Assembly: GCF_048403405.1 (NCBI RefSeq)
Contig: NZ_CP183129.1
Source: Escherichia coli
GTDB taxonomy: Bacteria; Pseudomonadota; Gammaproteobacteria; Enterobacterales; Enterobacteriaceae
Strand: one strand, 5' to 3'
Length of the DNA: 64,000 nt
Shown: piece by piece, positions 62,868-63,277 of the stretch
Position numbering within the stretch: the stretch's first letter is position 1
How the letters are laid out: every line of letters begins with the position of its first letter
Made by a program: the position numbers and the translations under genes
The notes under the pieces: model-generated
The model's input: only the letters and a program-made list of their open reading frames with translations
Told to the model about the DNA's origin: nothing
Databases searched by the model: none

Positions 62868-63277
62868 AAGTAATGGAAAGTATTTTTATCTTATTCATGG
62901 TGCATATTCTGATAATGAAGAGATTGTGGAGATTATGTGAAGATAGTTGACAATATTAAGTTGGGGTCAATTCATCAGAAAGGCTGCTACTTGTTGTCGC
63001 CAGTTCTGTTTTCATCATCAAACTTATCGGAGCTAATACGAATAGTTTCAGAGTCAGATTCTATAAGATATTCCCCCAACCTACCCCTTGCAGGCGTCAA
63101 GAGTAGATAACGCAAAATGCTCTGTACCGCAGCTTCTCTCCGGTACAGAAAGCGCAACTATAGCCACCCACAGCCAGGTTGATTATAATAACCGTTTATC
63201 TGTTCGTACTGTTTACTAAAACGACGAATCGCCTGATTTTCAGGCACAACAAGCATCAACAATAAGGATTAAAGCTA

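Follow-up and report, generated by a model that had tools for sequence, protein, structure and literature searches.

The divergent promoter region between eefR and fabI at the edge of the eefRABCD efflux island of Escherichia coli

In Escherichia coli K-12 the gene order is sapF, ycjD (354 nt, on the same strand as fabI), fabI. In the 64,000-nt stretch of E. coli DNA analysed here (contig NZ_CP183129.1; hereafter the window), fabI is instead preceded by an efflux island and a non-coding spacer containing a hairpin. What is this spacer composed of, what has become of ycjD, and does the hairpin have a function? The stretch proves to be an ordinary region of divergent promoters, bordering an island that is already published. 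It is probably composite in nature, with an island part, carrying the eefR promoter and a predicted operator, joined to the core fabI promoter at a site occupied by alternative cassettes, and with a fortuitous hairpin on the seam. As first described it matters little, because a published locus is re-described and the hairpin shows no sign of function. Two by-products could be of use: an operator predicted for EefR, and a possible difference in the regulation of fabI.

The cassette site between sapF and fabI

The gene limits used here (Table 1) are those of the RefSeq annotation of E. coli PCN033, which is 100% identical to the window over the spacer region (62801-63277, 477 bases). The families of all five genes of the efflux island were confirmed with NCBIfam and Pfam: a TetR regulator, an RND adaptor, an RND permease, an outer-membrane factor and an MFS pump lie on one strand, in that order, between sapF and fabI and without ycjD. 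This island is the published eefRABCD operon, for which the passages describing the locus in PMC12817139 (Microb Genom 2026; bioRxiv 10.1101/2024.08.01.606150) give an invariable sapF-eef-fabI arrangement in E. coli. The same passages place eefRABCD in phylogroups B2/D/E/F/G, and ycjD instead in A/B1/C; they also state that the eefR promoter is close to the fabI promoter, and that fragments of the operon persist in eef-negative strains. Therefore it was already known that the island exists, that it occupies this site, and that it and ycjD exclude each other; relative to eefRABCD of ATCC 25922 and SMS-3-5, as presented in that paper, the genes, their order and their site are the same, with no difference in kind. 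A term search of PMC12817139 returned no mention of an operator, and its passages on the locus contain no dissection of the spacer and make no reference to the hairpin or FadR box.

Table 1. Coordinates of the genes, predicted regulatory elements and conservation zones, in window numbering. Pairwise diversity among six E. coli is followed by divergence from the other Escherichia species aligned.
Feature	Position	Strand	Remarks
sapF	ends 55257	+	stop 55255-55257; RefSeq annotation of identical PCN033 sequence
Left-hand junction hairpin	55265-55302	.	between sapF and eefD stops; dG -32 kcal/mol, z=-5.5
eefD, MFS pump	55307-56470	-	stop 55307-55309; RefSeq PCN033
eefC, outer-membrane factor	56479-57852	-	RefSeq PCN033
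eefB, RND permease	57856-60963	-	RefSeq PCN033
eefA, RND adaptor	60963-62084	-	RefSeq PCN033
eefR, TetR-family regulator, first gene of eefRABCD	62233-62799	-	RefSeq PCN033; Pfam TetR_N E=1e-15; homologues align from residue 1
Zone a, eefR promoter and predicted operator	62800-62879		diversity 1.8%; other species 5-12.5%
Predicted EefR operator	62825-62842	.	18-bp palindrome TGAGAATGATCGTTCTCA, just downstream of eefR -10 box
Predicted eefR sigma-70 promoter	62852-62879	-	-35 TTTCCA 62879-62874; -10 TATAAT 62857-62852; 10/12 consensus match
Zone b, conserved block upstream of eefR promoter	62880-62960	.	diversity 1.2%; three other Escherichia species 1.3-6.2%
57-aa mechanical ORF	62937-63110	+	no Pfam/NCBIfam match
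Zone c, filler with indels	62961-63110		diversity 3.6%; other species 11-37%
56-aa mechanical ORF	62987-63157	-	no Pfam/NCBIfam match
Zone d, hairpin zone	63111-63153		diversity 1.2%; other species 0-18.6%
Inverted repeat (hairpin)	63121-63129 / 63141-63149	.	TCTGTACCG, 11-nt loop, CGGTACAGA; 9 perfect pairs
Allele-specific patch	63139-63155	+	FadR-like box CTCCGGTCGGACCTGGC in ycjD-type; CTCCGGTACAGAAAGCG (hairpin right arm) in window
Zone e, fabI promoter and 5'UTR	63154-63276		diversity 0.3%; other species 0.8-1.6%
Predicted fabI core promoter	-35 63161-63166; -10 63184-63189	+	TAGCCA, 17 bp, TATAAT; 10/12 consensus match
fabI initial transcribed region and 5'UTR	63190-63276	+	Shine-Dalgarno AAGGA 63264-63268; within 63154-63276 zone
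fabI, enoyl-ACP reductase	63277-64000, past window end	+	ATG 63277-63279; RefSeq PCN033

The preliminary description had placed a 378-bp, AT-rich non-coding spacer between the regulator and fabI. The non-coding gap exists, but it measures 477 bp (62800-63276), being 99 bp longer than supposed because eefR begins at 62799, as in RefSeq, and not at the in-frame ATG at 62898. In approximately 45 loci from other genera, the alignment of EefR homologues begins at residue 1 of the 188-aa form, and a start at 62898 would place the conserved -10 box and the palindrome inside eefR. The spacer is AT-rich when set against the window (60% AT; GC 0.40, compared with 0.51), but this composition is ordinary for intergenic DNA, since the 20 intergenic gaps of the window have an average GC of 0.41. 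It was correctly observed that no ORF attains 60 codons, the largest mechanical ORFs being of 57 aa and 56 aa.

The reported absence of ycjD was also borne out. In a tblastn search of the whole window with K-12 YcjD, the best match had E=7 and lay elsewhere. Alignment to the sapF-ycjD-fabI region of K-12, which had been proposed as a check, found only the fabI-proximal end in common, with a different spacer in K-12 and no remnant of ycjD in the window. A sensitive blastn comparison of the 633-bp K-12 cassette with the island detected no similarity beyond the two junctions. Among 5426 complete E. coli genomes, megablast found the whole spacer in 2037, while nearly all others share only 63154-63277; overall, the eef-type spacer is present in 2037-2043 of these genomes, and the K-12-type segment in 2825. 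In two other Enterobacteriaceae sapF is followed directly by fabI, across a gap of 142-187 bp, which suggests eefRABCD and ycjD are alternative insertions. Hence ycjD would be absent because the two are alternative cassettes at one site.

The right-hand junction of the island does lie in this stretch, as previously suggested, albeit inside the hairpin rather than at the regulator. Identity with K-12 is near-perfect from 63154, and in a sensitive alignment is degraded but recognisable back to approximately 63112-63127, hence the seam runs through the hairpin; at this junction, the K-12 sequence is GAAAAGCGCCCCCCCTGCCGCAGCCTGCTCCGGTCGGACCTGGCAAC, and that of the window is GCAAAATGCTCTGTACCGCAGCTTCTCTCCGGTACAGAAAGCGCAAC. 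At the left-hand junction, the hairpin between the sapF and eefD stops has stems common to the K-12 allele and loops that differ, and therefore the limit of the swap appears to lie at the loop of the sapF terminator. The cassette site would accordingly have the sapF terminator hairpin as its left limit, and the fabI promoter as its right.

Several minor features of this site concern ycjD and its surroundings. One stem pair of the left hairpin is T-A in K-12 and C-G here, a compensatory change, and the GTG start codon of K-12 ycjD falls in the right arm of this same hairpin. A third type of locus is found in three Logan assemblies (L060-L062, 2860-3403), in which ycjD has an internal stop and is much nearer fabI; 180 bp of the K-12 locus (L001, 2769-2948) are missing, gene callers fuse the two genes into a 396-aa DUF559-FabI product (P0003), and the FadR-like box is kept. 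This ycjD allele has no full-length match in the complete E. coli genomes. Homologues of YcjD with 60-65% identity are present in unrelated loci of Enterobacter, after a radical-SAM HemN-like gene, and of Klebsiella quasipneumoniae, beside an ABC transporter and a Dyp peroxidase (L068-L071). It seems that this small DUF559 endonuclease-like gene travels alone from one site to another.

The hairpin on the seam

The hairpin had been described as a 10-bp stem enclosing an 11-nt loop. Both hairpin and loop are present, but the stem has 9 bp, C63120 and A63150 being unpaired. As RNA, it has a dG of -15.4 kcal/mol, relative to -7.65 +/- 2.3 for shuffled sequences (z=-3.3). A perfect stem of at least 9 bp is found in approximately 3% of random 477-mers with the same first-order composition, and approximately eight such hairpins are present in the window; this one is only mildly unusual.

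The sequence was compared with the properties of known types of element. Firstly, it does not resemble an intrinsic terminator, as on the plus strand the stem is followed by AAGCGCAAC, with no T-run, and a scan of both strands over 62700-63400 found no terminator. Secondly, it is not a dispersed repeat of the REP/BIME, boxC, ERIC/IRU or MITE kind, as 62950-63153 and 63100-63165 are each found at a single place per genome. Thirdly, it does not behave as a structured non-coding RNA, as searching Rfam with 62000-64000 gave no match at E<=1, and every observed substitution in the stem breaks a pair. FabR and LexA sites were also considered for the inverted repeat, but the 11-nt spacing of its arms suits neither consensus.

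The hairpin segment is present in one copy per genome in 2040 of the 5426 E. coli genomes, with 566 genomes, including O157, being identical to the window over 63100-63165, and the hairpin is intact and identical in Escherichia sp. MOD1-EC7003. The change G63143C, which breaks the C63127:G63143 pair, occurs in five of the seven further E. coli eef+ sequences that were inspected, while E. whittamii has two pair-breaking stem changes and E. albertii three, none of which is compensated. The variant hairpins have dG values of -8.7, -8.2 and -7.1 kcal/mol, the level of shuffled sequences, and at one locus (L003) eef is present and the hairpin is entirely absent. Since uncompensated changes weaken the hairpin in these five strains and in both other species, it is probably without function, rather than a selected structure.

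A functional hairpin might act as a transcriptional insulator or terminator, protecting the fabI promoter against transcription that leaves the island, or as a palindromic regulator site replacing FadR in eef-type strains. Consistent with a role of this kind are its position, 12 bp upstream of the fabI -35 element and where ycjD alleles have a FadR-like box, its folding better than shuffled sequences, and its intact state in the 566 genomes and one other Escherichia species. However, the plus strand lacks a T-run and the terminator scan was empty, the island genes are all directed away from fabI, the breaks in the stem are uncompensated, L003 dispenses with the structure altogether, and equal hairpins occur in 3% of random 477-mers; a function of either kind is therefore improbable. 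Most likely, the hairpin is a fortuitous inverted repeat in the eef-type sequence upstream of fabI, and not a terminator, a small RNA or the end of a mobile element. Given the intact copies in the 566 genomes and in MOD1-EC7003, it may have a role restricted to certain lineages.

The fabI promoter and the FadR-like box of ycjD-type alleles

Enoyl-ACP reductase, encoded by fabI, is the target of triclosan, and the control of fatty-acid synthesis genes by FadR was worked out in K-12. The predicted fabI core promoter has the features of a sigma-70 promoter and is invariant across all Escherichia alleles examined, with the -10 element kept as GATATAAT in Salmonella and in another enterobacterium (L058); transcription would start at approximately 63196. 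The 123 bp before the fabI ATG, including the -35, -10, 5'UTR and Shine-Dalgarno sequences, are common to the window and the K-12 ycjD-fabI region at 96-98%. This core part of the spacer (63154-63276) would represent the Escherichia fabI promoter and 5'UTR, driving fabI whatever lies upstream.

The alleles differ in the adjoining patch at 63139-63155. In K-12, CTCCGGTCGGACCTGGC is preceded by a GC-rich, boxC-like repeat, whereas in the window CTCCGGTACAGAAAGCG is preceded by island DNA. A scan for FadR sites used the 17-bp consensus AnCTGGTCnGACnTGTT, in which 14 positions are specified, with a reporting cut-off of 9/14. The K-12 sequence matches at 10 of the 14, a score equalled or exceeded at only 49 of 128,000 window positions, whereas 63139-63155 in the window falls below the 9/14 cut-off (5/14 by hand count). 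The eef-type spacer has no conserved alternative FadR site, as the 9/14 matches at 63021-63047 vary between strains. The FadR-like box is invariant in all five ycjD-type sequences examined (K-12, an ETEC variant with a 366-nt ycjD, HH97, L060 and E. ruysiae); the 29-nt stretch around it is likewise invariant, save for one A/G difference in the ETEC variant, while both flanks vary. None of the eef-type sequences examined has the box; among them are six further E. coli (O157 and CFT073-like strains included), E. albertii and E. whittamii. All alleles have in common another 17-mer, at 63198-63214, that resembles a FadR site less well; if this were the functional site, the alleles would not differ.

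The part of PMC8115981 that concerns fabI (citing RegulonDB, My et al. 2015) lists a FadR site in the fabI promoter, with its first base 115 bp upstream of the ATG, and reports lower fabI expression upon loss of FadR. On the BW25113 sequence this -115 coordinate is off by at least one base, there being no G on either strand, and it serves as an approximate locator only. It puts the boundary of the site at approximately 63158-63164, and therefore a 17-bp site would overlap the allele-specific patch. A full-text literature search with candidate FadR site sequences returned unrelated papers only.

The FadR-like box of ycjD-type alleles sits where the right arm of the hairpin lies here, and activation of fabI by FadR may be allele-specific. 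If this box is the site at which FadR activates fabI in K-12, then the cassette swap would rewire fabI, leaving the eef-carrying phylogroups without direct FadR activation, a proposal that we regard as tentative and somewhat unlikely. Were it true, the eef lineages (B2/D/E/F/G according to the relevant passages of PMC12817139) would differ from K-12 in the response of enoyl-ACP reductase to fatty-acid supply. At fabI, K-12 may be unrepresentative of the eef phylogroups, as the candidate FadR site is tied to the ycjD cassette and the eef cassette lacks it.

The eefR promoter, its predicted operator and the remainder of the spacer

The island part of the composite would extend from 62800 to approximately 63110-63126, comprising the eefR promoter, the operator, a moderately conserved block and a weakly constrained filler. 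The motif CGTATAAT, together with TTTCCA, is found at the same place 5' of eefR in Enterobacter, Kluyvera, Lelliottia and Leclercia. The palindrome TGAGAATGATCGTTCTCA is unique in the 64-kb window even when up to three mismatches are allowed (0.03 expected), and occurs once, no more than approximately 110 bp (mostly 20-45 bp) upstream of the eefR start, at 46 of the 64 loci examined, which represent several genera. A palindrome that lies at the promoter of the regulator itself, and is conserved along with that regulator, is the classic arrangement of a TetR operator, and hence suggests EefR autorepression. On the basis of this sequence pattern, EefR would bind 62825-62842, and most likely represses its own operon via the 18-bp operator in the manner usual for TetR regulators. 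To our knowledge, no inducer or regulation of EefR and its pump has been established in E. coli, and the predicted operator sequence provides a starting point for experiments on EefR regulation.

This arrangement resembles that of the TetR local repressors of RND operons, such as AcrR/acrAB and MtrR, in that a TetR_N regulator lies beside adaptor, pump and outer-membrane-factor genes, and a palindromic operator, here a predicted one, overlaps the initial transcribed region of the promoter. Unlike in AcrR/acrAB-type systems, eefR is co-directional with eefABCD, and the divergent neighbour is the unrelated, essential fabI. In Enterobacter, Kluyvera and Lelliottia (L016, L034 and 17 further loci, approximately 5400-5815), the divergent neighbour of eefR is instead a 139-aa GNAT acetyltransferase. 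A homologous pump is encoded by eefABC of Klebsiella (Enterobacter) aerogenes, where the upstream DNA is AT-rich as it is here, and AT-rich DNA is the type of sequence preferred by H-NS. H-NS keeps the K. aerogenes operon silent (Masi et al. 2005, cited in PMC12817139), and according to the same part of PMC12817139 this operon lacks the eefR gene that the E. coli operon has.

Conservation across the spacer was assessed by zone (Table 1) in an alignment of six E. coli eef+ strains, E. whittamii, Escherichia sp. MOD1-EC7003 and E. albertii, with base-by-base inspection extending to 12 sequences. Between the Escherichia species aligned, the block at 62880-62960 has diverged less than the zone of the eefR core promoter and 5'UTR, and it contains two weaker promoter-like sites on the minus strand and a TTGACA on the plus strand at 62948-62953. 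It possibly represents extra promoters or regulator sites, and may be the source of a transcript. The filler at 62961-63110 is the least constrained, indel-rich part of the spacer. One 48-bp segment is absent from the window, and in MOD1-EC7003 (L005) the filler contains a 127-bp insertion of a dispersed repeat, with a median of six near-identical copies per E. coli genome, which resembles ERIC/IRU.

The filler might alternatively derive by decay from a gene once situated between eefR and fabI, such as the GNAT acetyltransferase gene, which starts approximately 190 bp upstream of eefR at 19 loci of other genera; its fast evolution and many indels are those of decaying DNA. However, a tblastn search with two GNAT proteins against five Escherichia spacers gave a best match of E=0.66 that was not collinear, and blastn of the spacer against all non-Escherichia loci, including the DNA upstream of eefR in other genera, found no similarity beyond 25-30 nt, at E values of 0.04 or worse, making such an origin unlikely. 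It is highly improbable that the spacer encodes a small RNA or small protein, in spite of approximately 250 bp without an assigned function (62880-63126), the good conservation of 62880-62960 and the mechanical ORFs of 56-57 aa, as there is neither an Rfam match nor a terminator-like site, and the ORFs, which belong to no Pfam or NCBIfam family and span the most indel-rich segment, lose their frames or stops in E. whittamii, E. albertii, MOD1-EC7003 and L003, such that the protein-coding reading is already largely refuted.

Further variation was observed within the operon and in related loci. The 148 bp that separate the eefR stop from the eefA start contain a perfect 9-bp AT-rich hairpin at 62111-62132 (CCTCATTAA, 4-nt loop, TTAATGAGG), which could be an attenuator or partial terminator between regulator and pump genes. 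In E. coli AVS0968 (L056, 2248-3166), an IS1 replaces eefR and the spacer up to approximately 63109 in window numbering, leaving eefA and eefB without a repressor gene, and the hairpin and fabI promoter intact; the passages of PMC12817139 on the locus describe a comparable case in Shigella dysenteriae, where an IS has replaced eefR/eefA. In the record titled E. coli SCPM-O-B-8794 (L003, 5510-6000), eefRABCD lies beside fabI with a different middle part of the spacer, for which there was no match among the 5426 complete E. coli genomes, and therefore this isolate probably belongs to a cryptic Escherichia lineage, rather than E. coli sensu stricto.

In Kluyvera georgiana, Kosakonia, Erwinia, Pantoea, Lonsdalea and Brenneria, the gene immediately after that of the EefR homologue encodes an EefD-like MFS pump, and RND genes are absent (L009, L010, L021, L023, L026, L027, L029, L031, L037, L040, L041, L043, L045 and L048). 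Extra central bases are present in the upstream palindrome at several loci of Erwinia, Lonsdalea and Brenneria (e.g. TGAGAATGAACGTTCATTCTCA). The original role of EefR may have been to regulate the MFS pump.
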